Below, piece by piece: positions 4,242-64,000 of a stretch of DNA of 64,000 nt. The notes under the pieces were generated by a model, which was given only the letters and a program-made list of their open reading frames with translations, was not told the origin of the DNA and did no database searches. Each line of letters opens with the position of its first letter. Position 1 is the stretch's first letter. Origin of the DNA: Pseudomonas phage sp. 30-2; the sequence record LC727697.1. One strand, given 5' to 3'. Both the position numbers and the translations under genes were made by a program.

Positions 4242-4555
4242 GTGTGATTTTTGTAACTATATAACAATCCGTTTCCTTTATTATTAATAATACATACAGA
4301 TCTAGTTTTATAATACATCTCTGAGGCCATTTTAATCATAAAACATTTACTAGATAAAGACAGTACACATATATCATTTTTAAATGTGTAAATGTATGAT
4401 AAGTGCTCTGAATCATGGTTTAAATTATATCTTACAAAAAAGTTTAATGTTTTTGTTGGTTTGTCATATAATCCTTCTATACTTATAACACTGTTACCTA
4501 TAACAGCCACGTTTGAGCATCCTGCTTGCATTTCTAGTATATTGTTTTCCTTCAT
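4214..4555 (-). CDS. hypothetical small protein
   Basis: tiled ORF. Confidence 0.4.
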   Translation of the reverse strand: MKENNILEMQAGCSNVAVIGNSVISIEGLYDKPTKTLNFFVRYNLNHDSEHLSYIYTFKNDICVLSLSSKCFMIKMASEMYYKTRSVCIINNKGNGLLYSYKNHTWARTCILI

Positions 4556-4603
4556 TTCAATACCTTATTTAAGAAATAACTAAACACAAATTATATCACA
4601 TGT

Positions 4604-4936
4604 TTATACAAAACACACCGGATCCCAATTATGGAACCGAGAACCTTGTATATCTATATTTAAGAAACATGGATTTATACCTAATGCTACTGCACGGTTT
4701 GATTCCATTTCTAAGTATAAAGTAGGATAGTCGAAACATATAATACAACACAAGGTAGACACCAAAAATACATTGATATGTAGATTTTTTGCAAACATAG
4801 AATACAAAGACGATTCTTTGTTACTGTAATGGAATACTTTCATGTTTTCTGAGTTAACAATAAAAAACCCGTAATTGTATTTTGAGTTATCTATTTCTAT
4901 TTTGTCACAATTGCTTTGTAATTTAATGATAAACAC
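4604..4936 (-). CDS. hypothetical small protein
   Basis: ORF, hydrophobic central segment. Confidence 0.4.
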   Translation of the reverse strand: MFIIKLQSNCDKIEIDNSKYNYGFFIVNSENMKVFHYSNKESSLYSMFAKNLHINVFLVSTLCCIICFDYPTLYLEMESNRAVALGINPCFLNIDIQGSRFHNWDPVCFV

Positions 4937-5148
4937 TTAAAATACCTTATATAATTTTGTTAAATTAACCCAACACGAATGGATAGTCAAGCATTTTGCG
5001 GTTCTTTGTCCTGTACATCTAACTCAGCAATAGTTGTACAGATTTTACTAGAATTGCAATAATAAGAATATACATAAAGAAGTTACATTTTTAGTTTGGA
5101 ATTTAAATGCAAATGGTGCGTTATGGTCTTATGCTAAAATACATTCAT

Positions 5149-5496
5149 TTATGCTAATACTATTTCGGATGAATAATTTTTACTACTAATACTATCATTT
5201 GCTATTTCATTGTATAAAATTGTACTTGAGTTACTGTCTGTCAATACTACTACTATTCTATTAATAATATAAGATGATATTTTTTGTGTTAATAGCTGAA
5301 TCTTAAATATATCTAAGTATATCAAACTATTGTTATATGTATAGTCTACAAACCACGACTGTAATGAATTTTCAATTTCTACACAATAAAATATATTATT
5401 ACCACGTCTATCTTTGATAATAAAATTATAGCGGTATGACCGGTCGTCTGGTTGTATTGTTTCCTGCAAAGCACTTAGCGTTATTATAGTATTCAT
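5149..5496 (-). CDS. hypothetical small protein
   Basis: ORF. Confidence 0.4.
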   Translation of the reverse strand: MNTIITLSALQETIQPDDRSYRYNFIIKDRRGNNIFYCVEIENSLQSWFVDYTYNNSLIYLDIFKIQLLTQKISSYIINRIVVVLTDSNSSTILYNEIANDSISSKNYSSEIVLA

Positions 5497-5604
5497 TTGC
5501 TACTAGATAAAATAAACACAAGTTTATGTTTAACACCGACATACGGTATTATATGATAATTCCTTGCTTGAATAGAAATAACAAGCATTGTTAAAAGTGA
5601 GTGT

Positions 5605-6216
5605 TTAGCCATTCTCTTCTCTTACTTTTTTTGCAATCACTTTAAACAATCCTGGATTTACTTTAAGTGCTTGAGGAATTATATTATGTCGAATTTGATT
5701 TCTATTAAAATTAGTGTCTCGGTTACTAGGATCTTCTAACCATTGTACACCATTACTTTTCGCATATTTTTTAAATTCGTTTTTTGTAGTAAGCATAAAC
5801 GGTCGGATGACATTTTTTTTCCGATACGGAATGATACGAGGCGAACCGTGCATACTATAAAACAACCACGTCTCTACGTTGTCGTCTAGTGTATGTGCAG
5901 TCATGATTTCTAATTCATGAGAGTGCAGAAATTTATATCGTTCGTTTCGCCAATGTTCTTCCCAACTGCAACCTTTTGGTTTTTTTGTGTTAATGCAGTA
6001 TACATGGCAATTTATTTTATTGTCGCTACAATAATCTCTCACAAATTGCTCTGCTTTGATATCATACTCCGATCCGTGGTTTACATGAAAGACATCGAAG
6101 TTATTTTGTGGATATTTCTTTAAGAAGGACAATGCAACCATAGAATCAATACCGCCCGAAACAGCGATACCAAATTTCTGTCCATAATATGCAATGGGTT
6201 TTACTAACTTAATCAA
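5605..6216 (-). CDS. tilS: tRNA(Ile)-lysidine synthetase, minimal N-terminal PP-loop domain
   Basis: PP-loop SGGIDS; AHTLDDNVETWL; RPFM; WLEDPSNRD..RNQIRH match TilS signature blocks (AHxxDDxxET, RPLL, WxEDxSN..RNxIR); a QueC reading was considered and rejected. Confidence 0.8.
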   Translation of the reverse strand: MIKLVKPIAYYGQKFGIAVSGGIDSMVALSFLKKYPQNNFDVFHVNHGSEYDIKAEQFVRDYCSDNKINCHVYCINTKKPKGCSWEEHWRNERYKFLHSHELEIMTAHTLDDNVETWLFYSMHGSPRIIPYRKKNVIRPFMLTTKNEFKKYAKSNGVQWLEDPSNRDTNFNRNQIRHNIIPQALKVNPGLFKVIAKKVREENG

Positions 6217-45537: not shown

Positions 45538-47046
45538 CTAGCGTACCTGCAATGTATATTTGTAATTGCCGCAATCGTAATATTTTAAATAACCTAAACT
45601 ATCCATTATTTCTGATTCGCTTAGATGTAAATTATTTTTATTAGAAATCTTAGATTTTATGAAATTAGATCTATGATATTTTATGTTGTCTTTTATATAC
45701 CAATAACCTGTATTTCTGTCATTCTTGGTTACATTTGTAAACCCGAGCTGTTTATATAAATTTCCATCTGACCAACACCTGTCTGCATATGTAATAATAG
45801 ATTTAGGGGAATATGTTTTTATGAAATATTTAAGAAGTTTGCTGGCTCCTCCTACAACAGTATTTTTGCTAGCATATCTAAGTAATTCATATTCCTCTTT
45901 TGTATATCTAGATTTCCCAAATGTCATTACGGCTACTAACAAATTCTCATTGTCGTATAGACCTAGTCTTACAGATGATTGACAAGAACCTTGGATGTGA
46001 GTTTCTTCTAAAAAAGTTAAAGATTCGTTAAATGTTATTTCTTTTATGGTTGTATTCCTTGCATATATTCTATCACTACAACCTAAAATAGATTTTAACC
46101 TTGATTTTATTATGTCTTGTTTTGATATCCAATCTACATCTAAAATTTGTATTAACTTTATTCCTTTATCTCTGCATTCTATAAATTTATCTACATGATA
46201 TGATTTTTTTCTGTGTTTTGTAGAATGCCAATAACAACCATTATATTCTATTGCTATGTTTGTACCTTTAATTACTATATCTAATTCTTTGTTAGATAAT
46301 ATAGATCGGTCATTGTTAATCACATCAAAACCTAGCGATACTATATAGTTAGATATTTCATTTTCGCCGGCAGACTTTGTTAAAGGATTACAAACATTGC
46401 ACCTCGGAGTAGACCCATAATCTACGTGTCCGATTACTATATTTCCGCATGCATTGCATACCCAGTCATACACATTTTTTCTAAAGCACCCTTCGTACTC
46501 GTCTATACTAAACGTAGGGGTGAGTATGTTAGAAAGTCGTTCTACTACTTTTTTATATCCCAATTCCTTTATAGTTCTATGATCTGGCTTTATATGTTTT
46601 TTACTTAATTGCTGTTTTGCAATAATATCTTTTGACTTAGATGGATTATCGACACCGTATTTTTCTATCCAAGTTTTTATCCTTTTTGTTTTCATACTTT
46701 CTTTTCCGGATTGTGTCATGCCTGGATGATTTTTTAAAGACCATTCCATATGGCATTTACATTTACTTTTATTTCCGCAAAATCCGTATTGGGTTTGTTT
46801 TGTATCTTTATTTCGCTTTAGTGTCCGTTTGTTATCATACTTACAGTAAACATTATCAGCCGGATTTAAGTATATATGAATCCTTTCTGTCACAGAAACG
46901 TCGTCACGAAGAAAGGAATTAGTTCGACGAACTAATTCCTCATATATTTCTTTTTTACTTTTTACTACATTTCCTAATGCGTTAGGATTTGTATTTTTTA
47001 TGAGTTCTTTTAATTCTATATCAAAGTTATCCATTATTCGTGCCAA
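45538..47046 (-). CDS. homing-endonuclease-like protein: Zn-finger pairs + Vsr/DUF559-like PD-(D/E)xK nuclease core + C-terminal domain
   Basis: CNACGN..CNVCN; ELDIVI..IAIEYNGCYWHS; paralog of the ORF at 62881..>64000 (IYAR..I.E..F...H.QG, ADRCWSDGNLY blocks). Confidence 0.7.
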   Translation of the reverse strand: MARIMDNFDIELKELIKNTNPNALGNVVKSKKEIYEELVRRTNSFLRDDVSVTERIHIYLNPADNVYCKYDNKRTLKRNKDTKQTQYGFCGNKSKCKCHMEWSLKNHPGMTQSGKESMKTKRIKTWIEKYGVDNPSKSKDIIAKQQLSKKHIKPDHRTIKELGYKKVVERLSNILTPTFSIDEYEGCFRKNVYDWVCNACGNIVIGHVDYGSTPRCNVCNPLTKSAGENEISNYIVSLGFDVINNDRSILSNKELDIVIKGTNIAIEYNGCYWHSTKHRKKSYHVDKFIECRDKGIKLIQILDVDWISKQDIIKSRLKSILGCSDRIYARNTTIKEITFNESLTFLEETHIQGSCQSSVRLGLYDNENLLVAVMTFGKSRYTKEEYELLRYASKNTVVGGASKLLKYFIKTYSPKSIITYADRCWSDGNLYKQLGFTNVTKNDRNTGYWYIKDNIKYHRSNFIKSKISNKNNLHLSESEIMDSLGYLKYYDCGNYKYTLQVR

Positions 47047-58955: not shown

Positions 58956-60577
58956 TAATTGTCTAATCCTTGTTCTAATTCGGTTAGTTTTTCGTCGTTT
59001 ATGTCTGCAAATTTATTTTCATCTTCGATTGCAGTAGCATCTACATCAAAAAGACTGTTAAATGAGTTTGAGTTATAATTGCCGAAACTAATGCTGTCTA
59101 GCATAGGTCTATAATCTTCTAATAATTGTCGCTTATTAGGAGTACTCGGATCTAGCAATACTTCTACAAAATGATCAAAATATAAAATCGAACTAGGGAC
59201 GTGATTACTTACTTCTATAGTACCTTTCTTTTTATCTCTAGTCCAATCTCGGTAATCTACTTTAACTCGCAACCGTTCTATATCAACTAATCTATTAGAT
59301 TCTTGGATTGCAGCTATATGATTGTAAACATTGTGATTCATTATTAATAAGTAACTAAGTGAATCCCAACTGGTTTTACCTACTTTACCATTTTTATTTG
59401 CACTCGGTGGCACGTATTCTGCATCTTTTCCTTCTTTGAGAGCAGTTTCTACATCTTCTTTTGTAAAGTTTGCATTTTTAACACCATTTATTATACCATA
59501 ACCATTGTGATATGGACATATGTCTTTTAATGATAATTTTTCCATAATAGGACTCATAAACGGCATAGGAATATCCTTATCACTAAACTCTCTGCTGTCC
59601 GGAGCAGAATCCATATTATATCCCCACCGTTTGGGATTAAAATAATTATAGTTATATGCAAGACCGTATGCCACAGAAACAAACGGAGAAGCTGCGTCAA
59701 AACTTATGTTAATATTGGGATTATAATGTTTTCTTATATTTCGCTGAATAGATGTTAAGAAACAAGCCCAATCAGTCCTGCCTAGTCCGAGAAAGTGTAT
59801 CCAGTTTTTATCTGAAATAATATTATCATCTATTAAATCTAAGAATCGAGAAAGAGCACAATACATATTTCTCATGTTTATACCAGCAAATGCATACCCT
59901 TCGAGTGTATGACTAGCCGGATATCCCATTTCTACTACTTTAGCTGGGTCACTAAATGCTTTTACGTTGTCGTACCAAATTTTAGATGTATCTACATCTG
60001 ATCCCGATAATACACTAAGGAATTTAGTTGCGCCAGGAGTTCTGTTCTTCATGTAATAATGTAAATTATGAAGAGAATAATCTAATGTATCTTCAAATTT
60101 ATTAAGACCGGTTTTTGAACTGTACGGAGGAGTAGCAGCAAACGCAGGAACATCTAGTGTCATTGACCAGTCGGCGGTATGTTCACACCATTTTAAAATT
60201 TCATTTCTTATTTTATCTCCGCTAGCTCCTTTAAAATCATCCCAGTTTAATTTAATTACACCGGTAGCTACCTGGAAACCACCCGAGTCTGCAATAACTG
60301 TTGTTTGTGTTTTGTCCCTGGCTTGGATCATCCATTCTTTTGCATCAGTTCTAGATAAAGACAGTTCTGCATGGCCTGCAGAATATAACCCATACCCGTA
60401 AAAGAATGTATCGCTAGATGGATCTAAAAAATTAAGAGTATTATATCCATTAGGAAAGCTAGGTATTTTTCTTGTAGACGGATCGTTAATAGAACTGTCT
60501 AATTGTTTTGTGTAAAACCCACTAATTGCAGGCAAATAGATCGCATAATCTTTTTGACTGTTTGATAAATTTTTCAT
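58955..60577 (-). CDS. dpdA: tRNA-guanine transglycosylase superfamily protein, DpdA-like DNA 7-deazaguanine transglycosylase candidate
   Basis: VIADSGGFQVATG: catalytic-Asp DSGGFQ signature of TGT/DpdA; 540 aa. Confidence 0.7.
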   Translation of the reverse strand: MKNLSNSQKDYAIYLPAISGFYTKQLDSSINDPSTRKIPSFPNGYNTLNFLDPSSDTFFYGYGLYSAGHAELSLSRTDAKEWMIQARDKTQTTVIADSGGFQVATGVIKLNWDDFKGASGDKIRNEILKWCEHTADWSMTLDVPAFAATPPYSSKTGLNKFEDTLDYSLHNLHYYMKNRTPGATKFLSVLSGSDVDTSKIWYDNVKAFSDPAKVVEMGYPASHTLEGYAFAGINMRNMYCALSRFLDLIDDNIISDKNWIHFLGLGRTDWACFLTSIQRNIRKHYNPNINISFDAASPFVSVAYGLAYNYNYFNPKRWGYNMDSAPDSREFSDKDIPMPFMSPIMEKLSLKDICPYHNGYGIINGVKNANFTKEDVETALKEGKDAEYVPPSANKNGKVGKTSWDSLSYLLIMNHNVYNHIAAIQESNRLVDIERLRVKVDYRDWTRDKKKGTIEVSNHVPSSILYFDHFVEVLLDPSTPNKRQLLEDYRPMLDSISFGNYNSNSFNSLFDVDATAIEDENKFADINDEKLTELEQGLDN

Positions 60578-60640
60578 TATATTCCTTAATTATTCTTTAG
60601 TGCATATGTATTTAGGTTAATTCATTTATAAATGAAAAAT

Positions 60641-60661
60641 ATAGGGCAATTATTGCCCTAT
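60641..60661. terminator. hairpin terminator
   Basis: atagggcaattattgccctat. Confidence 0.5.
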
Positions 60662-60910
60662 ATCATATATTTTTAATGTTCTTTTTGCCCATACACTTAG
60701 TTGTTCACACAACTCTTTTTCGGATTCTTGTTTATAATACAAATTGTCTGTTTTCTTAATACGCTCGAATATAATTTTTTCTTTCTTTGTAAAAAATATA
60801 TATTTTCTGTATACAAGAGTAACTGTAGTTATTGGTCTACCTATAGAATTGTAAGATTCCTGTACAATATAGTATTGCAATTTAACTAATTTACGAGCAG
60901 GTAAGATCAT
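60650..60910 (-). CDS. hypothetical small protein
   Basis: ORF. Confidence 0.4.
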   Translation of the reverse strand: MILPARKLVKLQYYIVQESYNSIGRPITTVTLVYRKYIFFTKKEKIIFERIKKTDNLYYKQESEKELCEQLSVWAKRTLKIYDIGQ

Positions 60911-60913
60911 TAT

Positions 60914-61660
60914 TTATGCACTTTTTGCAGGAAGAATATATTGAACTTCTATTAACCCAGTATCGAGTTCAATCATTAATGCACCCTGGCTAGAAATAGA
61001 CATAGTACATTTGCCACTATCTGCGTTTTTTAGAATTGCTAACACTTCTGGTAATGGCCAGGACCAGTTATTGCGTAATGTGCTCTTTACATCTTTTGCA
61101 AATGGTACAACGGTGCGGTCGCTAGTAGCACCGGTGCCTATGTGGAATTCTAAAACACCGTCTGTTACTTTAACTAAAAAGTTAGATTCATAAGAACCCA
61201 ATACAGCACTAAAATATTGAAGATCCTTCATCGCTTGTTTAGTAGGTTGAATAACTATATCCCACACAACTCCTCTAAACGGCGGAACTTTTAGCACTTC
61301 GTCTACTGTATCTCGTGCCATAAACCGGTACGACGATTTATGACCCGTCGAAGAAGAAAATACAATTTCTGCAGGAATTTCTTCACCGTTACGTTCTTGT
61401 TTCTTAATAGAAACTTCAGCATCATCTCCCGAATATGGTGGGAAATTTAACATACCGCTCAGTACAGACATTCTACTTAAACCTACAGTATCGTCTAACC
61501 CCGGAATGGATTTTTTTAAAGAACCGTACATAACTACAGTTTTATTGGTTGACATAGCTTCTAATTTAGTTTCATTTACAGAACCAATAATTTTAACAGT
61601 ATCTATAAAACCCAAACCGTGAGTGTTACGAACTACGTCCTTTAAATTGTCTACAATCAT
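60914..61660 (-). CDS. hypothetical protein downstream of DNA polymerase
   Basis: 248-aa ORF. Confidence 0.5.
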   Translation of the reverse strand: MIVDNLKDVVRNTHGLGFIDTVKIIGSVNETKLEAMSTNKTVVMYGSLKKSIPGLDDTVGLSRMSVLSGMLNFPPYSGDDAEVSIKKQERNGEEIPAEIVFSSSTGHKSSYRFMARDTVDEVLKVPPFRGVVWDIVIQPTKQAMKDLQYFSAVLGSYESNFLVKVTDGVLEFHIGTGATSDRTVVPFAKDVKSTLRNNWSWPLPEVLAILKNADSGKCTMSISSQGALMIELDTGLIEVQYILPAKSA

Positions 61661-61740
61661 TACTTATTATTCTCCTAAGATGTGTGTGAATTATACATTA
61701 AATATTTTCATAATGCAAGTGTACAAAGTATAGTTTTTGA

Positions 61741-62880
61741 TTACCAACCAAACAGCGAATCGAAGTGTGCAGCAGCTTCTTCTGTTTTACTAAAATCCCA
61801 TTTTAGAATACCTAAAAGGTTCTTAACTTTGTTATCTACTACTTTTTCTCTCATTAAATCTTCATCAAATGGCAAAGACGTAAACCATTCTGGTAAGTGC
61901 AATTCATCTACAGGATATGCTATACTAGTAAAATGATTGTCTGCGGTTTCTTTTAAATAACAAACAACACATTTTTGACCATCTGAGATTTTAGGAGTAT
62001 GTAGGTCTTTATTGATAAGCTTTAGTTTATTCCAATTCATCGCAGCAGACACGTGACCAGGGACAGTGATTCTAGACTCTCTTCCTGCTAACTTTTTATT
62101 CATGTGTTCTTCTAATTTATCTTCATATGTACTGATACCGTTGACGCCTTTTGGCATTCCCTTTTCCCACGGTTTCATTTTATTAAATTCTTTTTTAAAT
62201 TCTCTAATATATTCTATTACTTCATCTTCTGTTTTATGTGTTAGCACCATAACTAGAATTTCCATGAGGAATGTTTGGACAAATTTAGGCGTATCTGACC
62301 GACGTAAGTCTAAACCCATTGCTTTTACTTTTCCTGGGCTGTTTTCGTCGTCGTATCTAGTACCTTCTTTATCATACATCATAGCAGCATAACGTTTCTT
62401 TTTAATAAAAAGACCAGAAGTAGCTACAATTTCCCTACCTGACTTAATAACACCTTCTGAGTTTTTATATGGAACATTAAATGTTTGTTTTAAAAATTCT
62501 GGAAATGTATCACTTACTTGTGACGAAACGTTGTCGTATAATTTAATGACAGTATCTTTATCCCATTCCATTTCGCCAGATTCTACAAGGTCTTTTACTG
62601 CAGGCCATGCAGTAAAATAGCAAGAATTGTGAACTAATATATTATTTCCAAAGAAATACGGATTATCGGGATTTTTCATCCCTATATCGTATACATATTG
62701 TTTCTTTTTTCCTAAATTAGTTACTTTAGATACCTTTCCTAAAGACACATTAAATTTATTAGGATCTCTTTCTTTTATATTTTTGTTTAATTCTTCTAGC
62801 GCTCTTTTTGCACTTTTATATTCTTCGTCTTCTGTTTTTGCAGAAAATACACCTAAAAGGTGTTTTGTTAGATTATGCAT
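61741..62880 (-). CDS. family-B DNA polymerase C-terminal segment: intein C-terminal block (VYD..NFFGNNILVHN) followed by the C-extein (S-CYF..., KKRY region)
   Basis: IKKKRYAAMMYDKEGTRYD...GLDLRRSDTPKFVQ nearly colinear with the T4 gp43 KKRYA..DMEGTRY..GLE..S.TPK.VQ region; YVYDIGMKNPDNPYFFGNNILVHN|S matches intein blocks F/G with +1 Ser of motif C (YGDTD|S). Confidence 0.8.
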   Translation of the reverse strand: MHNLTKHLLGVFSAKTEDEEYKSAKRALEELNKNIKERDPNKFNVSLGKVSKVTNLGKKKQYVYDIGMKNPDNPYFFGNNILVHNSCYFTAWPAVKDLVESGEMEWDKDTVIKLYDNVSSQVSDTFPEFLKQTFNVPYKNSEGVIKSGREIVATSGLFIKKKRYAAMMYDKEGTRYDDENSPGKVKAMGLDLRRSDTPKFVQTFLMEILVMVLTHKTEDEVIEYIREFKKEFNKMKPWEKGMPKGVNGISTYEDKLEEHMNKKLAGRESRITVPGHVSAAMNWNKLKLINKDLHTPKISDGQKCVVCYLKETADNHFTSIAYPVDELHLPEWFTSLPFDEDLMREKVVDNKVKNLLGILKWDFSKTEEAAAHFDSLFGW

Positions 62881-64000
62881 TTATAAATCCTTTGTATAAA
62901 CAATATTTCCCGAATCCCAAATCCTGCCATATCCGTTTGCGTAAATATTTTCTACTACGCTAACCGAATTATTATAATTTTTTAATTTAACTTTTGCCTT
63001 GTCTTTAGAGAAAGATAATCTATTATATGTATCTTTGAAGTCAGTATAATAAAATCCAGGAGCTATTATTGAAGTTTTAGCAAATCCGTTTTTTTCATAA
63101 ACGTTTCCTACGGACCAGCGCCTATTTGCATATGATACTATCTTGCCTGTAAAATTACAAGAAACTACCTTTAATAATTTAGAAAACCCACCTATTACAC
63201 TTGTGTTATTTAGGTTACAAAATCTTACTATTTCCCAGTTTGCATTTTTATTAAACCTGGGCTTTGCAATTGTTAATAAAGAAACTAATTGATCCGAATA
63301 ATACAATCCGTATGCATGCCGAAATTGTGCATGACCTTGCAAATGATTCGTTTCGGCGAATTGCTTTGCATCATCGAACTTAACTTCTTTAATTTCTGTT
63401 TTTCTTGCATATATTTTATTAGATAAACCTAGTTTATTTTTTATTACTGAGATCCATATATCTTTTTTAGTATGCCATTCGTTGTCGAAAATGTGTAATA
63501 ATTGGATATTATTTTGTTCACATGTAGTGGTTTTATCAAGGTGGTATGTTTTATATTTTTGATCAGTTTCTATATGTTTAGAAGAATGCCAATAAAGTCC
63601 ATTATATTCTATTGCAAGATTTTTACTAGGAACATATATGTCTAATTCGAACCCGAATCTATTGTATGAATGAATTGTATCTGAGCAATAAGATTTAACT
63701 AAATCGAATATTTCTATTTCTGCCTTAGACCTGTATGTAGTTTCTGCTACTTTATCTAAACCGCATTTCTGACAACCGTGTCCGGCAGTATGATAGTATG
63801 ATATAAGGTTAAAGTCGCCGTGTACCGGGCATGTTATAATAACTTTATCTCTAATGTTAGTGTATATAGTTTTAGTATAGTCATAAAAATTATTATGAAC
63901 GTTATTACTTCTTTCTATGAAAGAATCTGTGTCATATGATAATCTATGACCGATGGCTTCGAACGAGCATTTTTTACAACCGTGACCTGATTGATGGACG
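62881..64000 (-). CDS. homing-endonuclease-like ORF (partial; continues beyond window) in frame with the polymerase segment and separated from it by a single TAA
   Basis: Hand translation gives HGCKKC/HGCQKC Zn fingers, LAIEYNGLYWHSSKH Vsr-like core and a C-terminal domain paralogous to 45538..47046; stop 62881..62883 abuts ATG 62878..62880. Confidence 0.65.
   Translation of the reverse strand, partial: VHQSGHGCKKCSFEAIGHRLSYDTDSFIERSNNVHNNFYDYTKTIYTNIRDKVIITCPVHGDFNLISYYHTAGHGCQKCGLDKVAETTYRSKAEIEIFDLVKSYCSDTIHSYNRFGFELDIYVPSKNLAIEYNGLYWHSSKHIETDQKYKTYHLDKTTTCEQNNIQLLHIFDNEWHTKKDIWISVIKNKLGLSNKIYARKTEIKEVKFDDAKQFAETNHLQGHAQFRHAYGLYYSDQLVSLLTIAKPRFNKNANWEIVRFCNLNNTSVIGGFSKLLKVVSCNFTGKIVSYANRRWSVGNVYEKNGFAKTSIIAPGFYYTDFKDTYNRLSFSKDKAKVKLKNYNNSVSVVENIYANGYGRIWDSGNIVYTKDL

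Follow-up and report, generated by a model that had tools for sequence, protein, structure and literature searches.

The DNA analysed here, a stretch of 64,000 nucleotides from Pseudomonas phage sp. 30-2 (sequence record LC727697.1) which is referred to below as the window, ends within a gene for a family-B DNA polymerase (PolB) that appears to be interrupted by a split intein and by the gene of a homing endonuclease. All the features of this locus are on the minus strand. Bases 60000-64000 of the window share 98.3-98.8% identity with ten Wroclawvirus genomes, which are PA5oct-like jumbo phages of Pseudomonas aeruginosa (Cassandra, Callisto, Deifobo, Ettore, MIJ3, PA5oct, PAC2, Paride and 30-3), and by this measure the window is that of a PA5oct/MIJ3-like Pseudomonas jumbo phage (Wroclawvirus). 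The locus was read over its full length in six relatives, and four more genomes, with identities above 98%, were compared at the window end only. The N-terminal part of the polymerase (the N-extein), together with the N-terminal half of the intein (IntN), lies beyond base 64000 and was read from the relatives, which are about 98% identical.

The locus of the six relatives consists of three coding sequences (CDS), for an 803-amino-acid PolB N-terminal part (Pol-N), a 560-amino-acid homing endonuclease and a 379-amino-acid PolB C-terminal part (Pol-C), found at identical coordinates and with zero indels in all six; compared base by base with them, the window shows 38-48 differences in 2,260 positions. 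On the coding strand the three genes start at 0, 2404 and 4087, respectively, so that the endonuclease and Pol-C share one frame and Pol-N is read in another. The endonuclease ATG overlaps the Pol-N stop codon at ATGAATAA, in a frame differing from that of Pol-N, while at its other end the endonuclease open reading frame (ORF) closes with VYTKDL and a TAA placed straight before the Pol-C ATG, both junctions being invariant across the genomes compared. The original prediction, made from the letters of the window, had described an endonuclease ORF in frame with Pol-C and separated from it by a single TAA, which can be read directly at 62881..62883. Moreover, the N-extein and the intein blocks A and B that it expected upstream are present in the six genomes (SVDGSTIL and VTEDHS), and the separate endonuclease start about which it had asked is the ATG that overlaps the Pol-N stop. 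The features are collected in Table 1.

Table 1. Features of the split polymerase locus and of the related endonuclease gene in the window.
Feature	Position	Strand	Remarks
Pol-C ORF	61741..62880	minus	379 aa, begins MHNLTK
PolB C-extein	61741..62625	minus	294 aa + TAA stop; first residue Ser+1 (TCT, 62623..62625), SCYFTAWP
IntC, C-terminal split-intein half	62626..62880	minus	85 aa, MHNLTK...QYVYDIGMKNPDNPYFFGNNILVHN
Intein blocks F and G	~62626..62700	minus	VYDIGM...FFGNNILVHN, then Ser+1
IntC N-terminal extension	62746..62880	minus	first ~45 residues
Endonuclease/Pol-C junction	TAA 62881..62883, Pol-C ATG 62878..62880	minus	abutting TAAATG, same frame
Shine-Dalgarno-like AAGGA	62888..62892	minus	7 nt 5' of Pol-C ATG, within endonuclease last codons
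Homing-endonuclease gene, 3' two-thirds	62881..64000	minus	C-terminal 372/560 codons + TAA, open to window edge
Mom-like GNAT-fold domain	~62884..63420	minus	endonuclease C-terminal part
EDxHD/Vsr-like nuclease core	~63430..63738	minus	endonuclease gene
Zinc-ribbon repeats	~63760..63999	minus	endonuclease, CxxHG...GHGCxKC
Paralogous free-standing Hef-type homing-endonuclease gene	45538..47046	minus	502 aa, outside any split gene

The two outer genes together account for one polymerase. Residues 84-374 of Pol-C are covered by Pfam DNA_pol_B (above cutoff) and by PHROG DNA-polymerase matches, and its residues 86-379 correspond to the C-terminal part of a family-B polymerase (PHROG 262 and 1918, at 1e-50 or better). 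The PHROG 262 profile is spanned jointly by both products, from position 10 to 583 by Pol-N and from 581 to 852 by Pol-C. The Pol-N of the relatives ends with CVIYGDTD, followed by SVDGSTILNTSLGKITIEELF...YVYRHEVEKELFEIEDNNGNKVIVTEDHSIMVIRNAELLEVKPAELTDSDIILSIVYE and a stop, and residues 61-92 of Pol-C read QYVYDIGMKNPDNPYFFGNNILVHN and then SCYFTAW, so the break falls at the catalytic motif C of the polymerase.

The residues beyond YGDTD in Pol-N and those before SCYFTAW in Pol-C have the features of intein halves. IntN comprises 117 amino acids in the six relatives, running from SVDGSTIL through TEDH to a terminal IVYE, and carries block A (with Ser1), block B (VTEDHS) and block N4; it scores 31.9 bits with NCBIfam intein_Nterm, for which the cutoff is 24.5. 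The IntC of about 85 residues that the original prediction had recognised, with blocks F and G followed by Ser at motif C (YGDTD|S), is seen at 62626..62880. The motif set of the pair is complete (Ser1, the NX motif RH within YRHE, block B TEDH, block F VYD, block G HN and Ser+1), while the cysteine count is zero in both IntN and IntC. The histidine of the NX motif, in the form [K/R]-H, is a signature of cysteine-less inteins with Ser1 (PMC10189870). Furthermore, S1, H64, T84/D86/H87, V180/Y181/D182 and N202 are invariant in an alignment of the nine-sequence intein family, and IntC aligns with the inteins of Aes123, PTm1, CP21, SCTP-2 and KP13-7. When IntN and IntC are fused and compared with solved structures, the best match is the Aes123 PolB intein (9hth, E=5e-14), followed by the TFIIB, PI-PkoII, PI-PfuI, RadA and PolB16 inteins; the family profile gives stronger matches, but itself includes Aes123. 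The pair thus has the Ser1, the T-x-x-H of block B and the His-Asn of blocks F/G plus Ser+1 that characterise class-1 inteins by sequence, as well as the traits of the cysteine-less PolB1 allele, namely no Cys, Ser1/Ser+1, NX [K/R]-H and insertion at DTD|S. This body of motifs and alignments supports the identification of the locus as a cysteine-less class-1 mini-intein, split, and inserted at the PolB motif C YGDTD|S.

The gene between both halves was called HNH in the MIJ3 paper (PMC6892783) and in GenBank. Among the Pfam and NCBIfam matches of the endonuclease, its paralogue in the window and three homologues there is no HNH family, the sole HNH label being a PHROG annotation string, and the core fits an EDxHD structure instead. 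An alignment of 34 endonuclease sequences shows E118, D120, E131 and H138 to be invariant within ELDIY...AIEYNGLYWHS...FDNEW, and E174 and W175 to be nearly so (E174 in at least 90%). A single-sequence search of solved structures with the endonuclease gave no match, a family profile being required; the latter matches I-Bth0305I (3R3P, E=3.6e-7), the prototype of the EDxHD/Vsr-like family. The PA5oct record labels the protein Hef-like, and Taylor et al. (2011) placed the bacteriophage Hef-type homing endonucleases in the EDxHD family (PMC3239194). The endonuclease is, as judged from these conserved residues and profile matches, a member of the EDxHD/Vsr-like (Hef-type) family, and not of HNH type as published. 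The zinc fingers announced for the upstream ORF are visible as CxxHG...GHGCxKC zinc-ribbon repeats, and the relation proposed with the free-standing gene at 45538..47046 also holds, with 38% identity over 293 amino acids (BLASTP, E=7e-49). This paralogue has weak Vsr and MTES_1575 matches, and PHROG 3339 at 1.6e-115; a tblastn search of the window for further endonuclease copies found none beyond these two.

The C-terminal part of the endonuclease adds a Mom-like GNAT-fold domain to the nuclease. Two homologues of the protein (P0046 and P0108) score above the cutoff of the Mom protein family in Pfam (PF25680), and the AlphaFold2 model of the portion within the window has a mean predicted local distance difference test (pLDDT) score of 90.4. 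R199, H219, Q221, E256 and R259, numbered as in the window endonuclease, are invariant in this domain. Mom is the DNA-modifying enzyme of phage Mu. It is conceivable, although unlikely, that this strictly conserved domain is active as a DNA-directed acyltransferase, marking or protecting the phage's own allele or reading a modified base, which would link modification to homing; a literature search for homing endonucleases with Mom-like domains gave no relevant result. As a separate observation, a perfect inverted repeat with a 12-bp stem (AAGAAAGAATAC...GTATTCTTTCTT; L001 13486-13513) is located about 50-80 nt 3' of the endonuclease ATG, outside the window. Situated within the 5' portion of that gene, it might have the regulatory role which Dassa et al. 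assigned to upstream hairpins.

The comparison with more distant relatives yields empty, contiguous and fractured alleles. Three metagenomic Pol-C relatives with an empty site (P0215, P0236 and P0190) read YGDTDSCYFSA(Y/W)P, and so present at the junction the same YGDTDSCYF as the product predicted from joining YGDTD to SCYFTAWP. A matched pair is formed by the empty P0219 (YCDTDSVYFSAYPMF) and by P0150, in which a contiguous intein is inserted (YCDTD, then SETADT...LLHN, then SVYFSAYPMF). The contiguous relatives of the intein have no endonuclease domain within it. Among the fractured alleles, the metagenomic contig L012, of about 54% identity, has a PA5oct-like synteny with a Hef-type endonuclease (4548-6011), whereas another one, L014, carries a classical 286-amino-acid Vsr-like gene at the same intein position (5151-6011); in both contigs there is an out-of-frame overlap of 11 nt between Pol-C and the endonuclease ORF. 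Vsr-type endonuclease genes between homologous split-intein halves are also present in Aeromonas T4-like phages (Aes123 and others), whose GenBank entries name the genes intein-containing split DNA polymerase precursor and putative VSR endonuclease, as well as in PTm1 (Tenacibaculum), CP21 (Campylobacter) and KP13-7 (a Klebsiella jumbo phage).

The endonuclease gene is inserted after block N4 and ahead of the linker/block F. One and the same intein site is thus occupied by two endonuclease architectures, the Hef-type of 487-560 amino acids (window phage and L012) and the classical Vsr-like type of 286-353 amino acids (L014, Aes123, CP21, KP13-7 and PTm1), which points to independent invasions or to the replacement of one gene by another. 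The classical proteins are mutually homologous over their full length and share only a nuclease core of about 70-100 amino acids with the PA5oct-type protein. Regarding the site in the polymerase, insertion at DTD|S with Ser+1 is common to the window phage, Aes123, PTm1 and CP21, while homologous inteins are found two residues upstream, at YGD|TDS with Thr+1, in the Salicola phage SCTP-2 (L005 2117-5386), KP13-7, P0125 and P0163. At the level of the sequences compared, this survey shows that empty, contiguous-intein and fractured alleles coexist in one PolB clade.

Two further genomes deserve mention in this respect. The fractured PolB of KP13-7 (OP617745, Alcyoneusvirus; L007 1194-5957), consisting of an 842-amino-acid Pol-N with IntN, a 325-amino-acid Vsr-like endonuclease and a Pol-C whose IntC measures about 122 amino acids, is annotated in its three CDS as hypothetical protein only. 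Another contig (L015 3749-7647; ERZ28616737 scaffold_9) encodes a contiguous motif-C mini-intein in a PolB that is also broken further upstream, into a 561-amino-acid part, an 83-amino-acid ORF and a 548-amino-acid part, resembling the gp43A/gp43B split of Aes123.

The variation among the window and its six relatives was used to assess selection, by dividing the variable codons into those with synonymous changes only and those with an amino-acid change. The counts are 56 and 7, respectively, for the N-extein, 19 and 4 for IntN, and 27 and 0 for the C-extein, from which it follows that the intein half and both polymerase halves are under purifying selection. With 47 synonymous-only and 20 amino-acid-changing codons, the endonuclease is constrained as well, less strongly than the polymerase. 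In the six Wroclawvirus genomes, IntN is variable in 23 of its 117 codons (L001 13560-13910), as compared with about 9% in the exteins and 2 of 85 codons in IntC; recombination, or co-conversion tracts beside the endonuclease gene, could possibly be the source of this high variability.

What was found, then, are two same-strand ORFs that make up one enzyme, broken within an intein, with a free-standing endonuclease gene at the canonical point. Very probably, the PolB gene is a fractured gene, in which a free-standing Hef-type endonuclease gene lies between the halves of a split cysteine-less mini-intein. The endonuclease gene would have landed later, at the usual endonuclease-insertion site of a motif-C mini-intein, splitting it and leaving three closely packed ORFs, namely Pol-N with IntN (803 amino acids), the endonuclease (560 amino acids) and IntC with Pol-C (379 amino acids). 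The Pol-N and Pol-C pieces would be translated separately, the AAGGA in the last endonuclease codons presumably serving as the ribosome-binding site for Pol-C; the junction of the endonuclease gene with Pol-C shows a weak fold (z=-1.7). IntN (117 amino acids) and IntC (85 amino acids) would then associate and fold into a HINT domain, where Ser1 would undergo the N-O acyl shift and Ser+1 would attack the resulting ester, after which cyclisation of the terminal Asn would release the intein and leave a polymerase of about 980 amino acids with an intact motif C, YGDTDS. Trans-splicing is a probable event in this phage because of the homology with the PolB1 split intein of Aes123, which is inserted at the same position and likewise has Ser1 and Ser+1. 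As for the endonuclease, it would be a selfish passenger with a predicted nuclease activity, whose likely target is the endonuclease-free allele; presumably it cuts such alleles and spreads by gene conversion.

Several observations weigh against this interpretation. The N-terminal half is outside the window and is deduced from genomes about 98% identical, while IntC alone scores below the cutoffs of both Pfam Intein_splicing (C-terminal part, 23.2 bits against 35.8) and NCBIfam intein_Cterm (15.4 against 15.6). Moreover, IntC is unusually long, with 85 amino acids as compared with 39 in Aes123 and 42-46 in other PolB split inteins, and the block-F histidine of Aes123, CP21, PTm1 and SCTP-2 is replaced here by Asn. 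To these may be added that no significant hairpin of the kind described by Dassa et al. was found 5' of the endonuclease start (z=0.02), and that the PA5oct omics paper makes no mention of polymerase, inteins or homing endonucleases. Further papers in which PA5oct and inteins are both named had no bearing on this question.

The length of IntC can be accounted for. Its extension of about 45 residues is collinear with the internal linker between blocks N4 and F of the contiguous mini-inteins P0150, P0172 and P0181, a linker which the split relatives L012 and L014 also possess, and this collinearity indicates that the endonuclease gene landed immediately upstream of a pre-existing linker. The extension does not derive from the endonuclease: in the alignment of that protein with its paralogue, both stop at one and the same position. 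This alignment shows that the extra length of IntC is no oddity but comes from an internal linker that was inherited. With regard to block F, the Asn was considered as a sign of an inactive intein and this was rejected: the position is occupied by N, R, H or Q across the sub-clade, including contiguous inteins that must splice, and the replacement is for that reason not regarded as inactivating.

The same peculiarities of IntC and block F, together with the silence of the PA5oct omics paper and the documented cases of endonuclease-caused gene splits without splicing (Dassa et al. 2009, PMC2677866; also PMC3045599), could be taken to favour a non-covalent polymerase of two subunits, whose intein halves would have lost splicing and would act only as a dimerisation module. 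This enzyme would resemble the NrdA of phage Aeh1, which is split by an endonuclease gene, or the split, intein-less gp43 of some T4-like phages. Such a polymerase is very unlikely, given that all the residues of the splicing chemistry are kept (Ser1, the NX His, Thr and His of block B, Asp of block F, the penultimate His, the terminal Asn and Ser+1), that synonymous-only codons predominate in IntN (19 against 4), that the break is inside the catalytic motif C, between DTD and S, and that the homologous Aes123 and CP21 inteins have been adopted as splicing tools, the former being known to splice (PMC11923092, PMC12707363).

The shared frame of the endonuclease gene and Pol-C, with the TAA alone between them, is the argument for a single precursor, made by frameshift and stop read-through and then spliced in cis; the original prediction had in fact offered, as alternatives, a contiguous intein whose endonuclease domain had acquired a stop, and read-through followed by splicing. 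Neither stands. Pol-N is in another frame, and a programmed frameshift at ATGAATAA would be needed in addition to read-through of the TAA. The contiguous intein with a stop is rejected because the endonuclease ORF opens with an ATG of its own, which overlaps the stop codon of Pol-N in a different frame, and because the contiguous relatives are devoid of an endonuclease domain. The architecture of the relatives also contradicts read-through, the overlap of 11 nt in L012 and L014 being out of frame, and Dassa et al. (PMC2677866) state that no intein domain of the Vsr-like endonuclease type is known. A recoded precursor is thus extremely improbable, and the same degree of disbelief applies to the idea that the split polymerase is a decaying pseudogene, another polymerase being in charge of replication. 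This idea was suggested solely by the interruption of the gene, and nothing was found in its favour: purifying selection acts strongly on both exteins (56/7 and 27/0), no indels occur in the six relatives or in the portion within the window, and the arrangement is kept at about 54% identity.

The fractured gene with a split intein hence remains the preferred explanation. A PolB clade in which three allele types are found is a good natural series on which the gene-breaking model of Dassa et al. can be tested. Naturally split cysteine-less inteins are rare and wanted as protein-engineering tools. The 117-amino-acid IntN and the 85-amino-acid IntC may together constitute a working cysteine-less intein that is split in nature and has an unusual linker built into it; in that case, orthogonality to the Aes/CL and LCGC14 inteins would be probable, and the pair would make a useful tool for protein ligation. 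No report of a biochemical characterisation of the intein of the window phage was found.

As regards the expression of the locus, a sigma-70 scan was uninformative (38 promoter-like sites against 29 expected), and a promoter and terminator pair upstream of Pol-N was the sole feature obtained from the promoter/terminator scan. The annotation of the genes in public records contains errors. In the MIJ3 record (GenBank LR588166; L008 6742-9564) the Pol-C CDS bears the gene name 'ATPase', the endonuclease figures as 'HNH homing endonuclease III', and in the records of Callisto and 30-3 all three genes are annotated as hypothetical.

The split-intein layout of PolB is already known, having been published in 2019 for MIJ3, and the general arrangement in 2009. 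Within the PolB genes of that phage (orf153 and orf155), Imam et al. (2019, PMC6892783) reported a putative split intein accompanied by a homing endonuclease, orf154, and compared it to SCTP-2; the genome is about 98% identical, and the locus and its three ORFs are the same as here. The blocks published for MIJ3 (A SVDGSTILNTSL, N2, B NKVIVTEDHSIMV, N4, F VYDIGMKNPDNPYFF and G GNNILVHNS) match those read here. The paper reports no splicing, and it differs from the present analysis in the endonuclease, called HNH there and EDxHD/Vsr-like (Hef-type) here. What the present analysis adds is the correction of the endonuclease family, the recognition of the Mom-like domain, an explanation for the IntC extension, and the coexisting allele types with two endonuclease architectures at one site.

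The fractured genes of Dassa et al. (2009, PMC2677866) consist of adjacent same-strand ORFs for the two parts of a single enzyme, each with a split-intein half, between which a free-standing Vsr-like or GIY-YIG endonuclease gene is placed at the canonical insertion point, and it was from them that the Vsr-like family was defined. The link to this family which the original prediction had drawn was correct. The likeness to this organisation that it had pointed out is likewise supported by the layout in the six relatives and by the match to 3R3P. In the genes of Dassa et al. the downstream ORF takes its start codon from the 3' part of the endonuclease gene, which it overlaps by 6-69 bp, whereas here TAA and ATG abut; the 5' hairpin of those genes was not found at this locus. 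The present endonuclease is also a larger protein of Hef type, with zinc-ribbon repeats before the nuclease and the Mom-like domain behind it. I-Bth0305I and the rest of the EDxHD family, including the Hef proteins of T4-like phages (PMC3239194), have the same acidic-histidine core of E, D and H. However, I-Bth0305I is encoded in an intron and has N-terminal NUMOD motifs, with its nuclease domain at the end, in place of which the protein described here has N-terminal zinc-ribbon repeats and, at its C-terminus, an additional GNAT/Mom-like domain of some 180 amino acids.

Among the inteins, SCTP-2, P0150, P0172 and P0181 are homologous contiguous motif-C mini-inteins, unsplit and with no endonuclease gene. 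The three metagenomic ones share the insertion site and the internal linker, which in the split form corresponds to the IntC extension, while that of SCTP-2 is inserted two residues upstream (YGD|TDS), ends with KN instead of HN and has Thr+1. A close parallel is the PolB1 intein of Aes123 (Mootz laboratory, PMC11923092, PMC12707363; 9hth), which agrees in the DTD|S site, Ser1/Ser+1, the absence of Cys, the Lys/Arg-His of the NX motif and the Vsr-type gene between its halves. The differences are that its IntN is only about 33% identical to the present one, that its endonuclease is a classical Vsr-like protein of 353 amino acids, sharing only the nuclease core, and that its polymerase has a second break (gp43A/B1/B2). 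In vitro, the PolB1 split intein of Aes123 does trans-splice (PMC11923092), and the PolB1 homologue of CP21 was picked for biochemical characterisation as a candidate cysteine-less split intein (PMC12707363).

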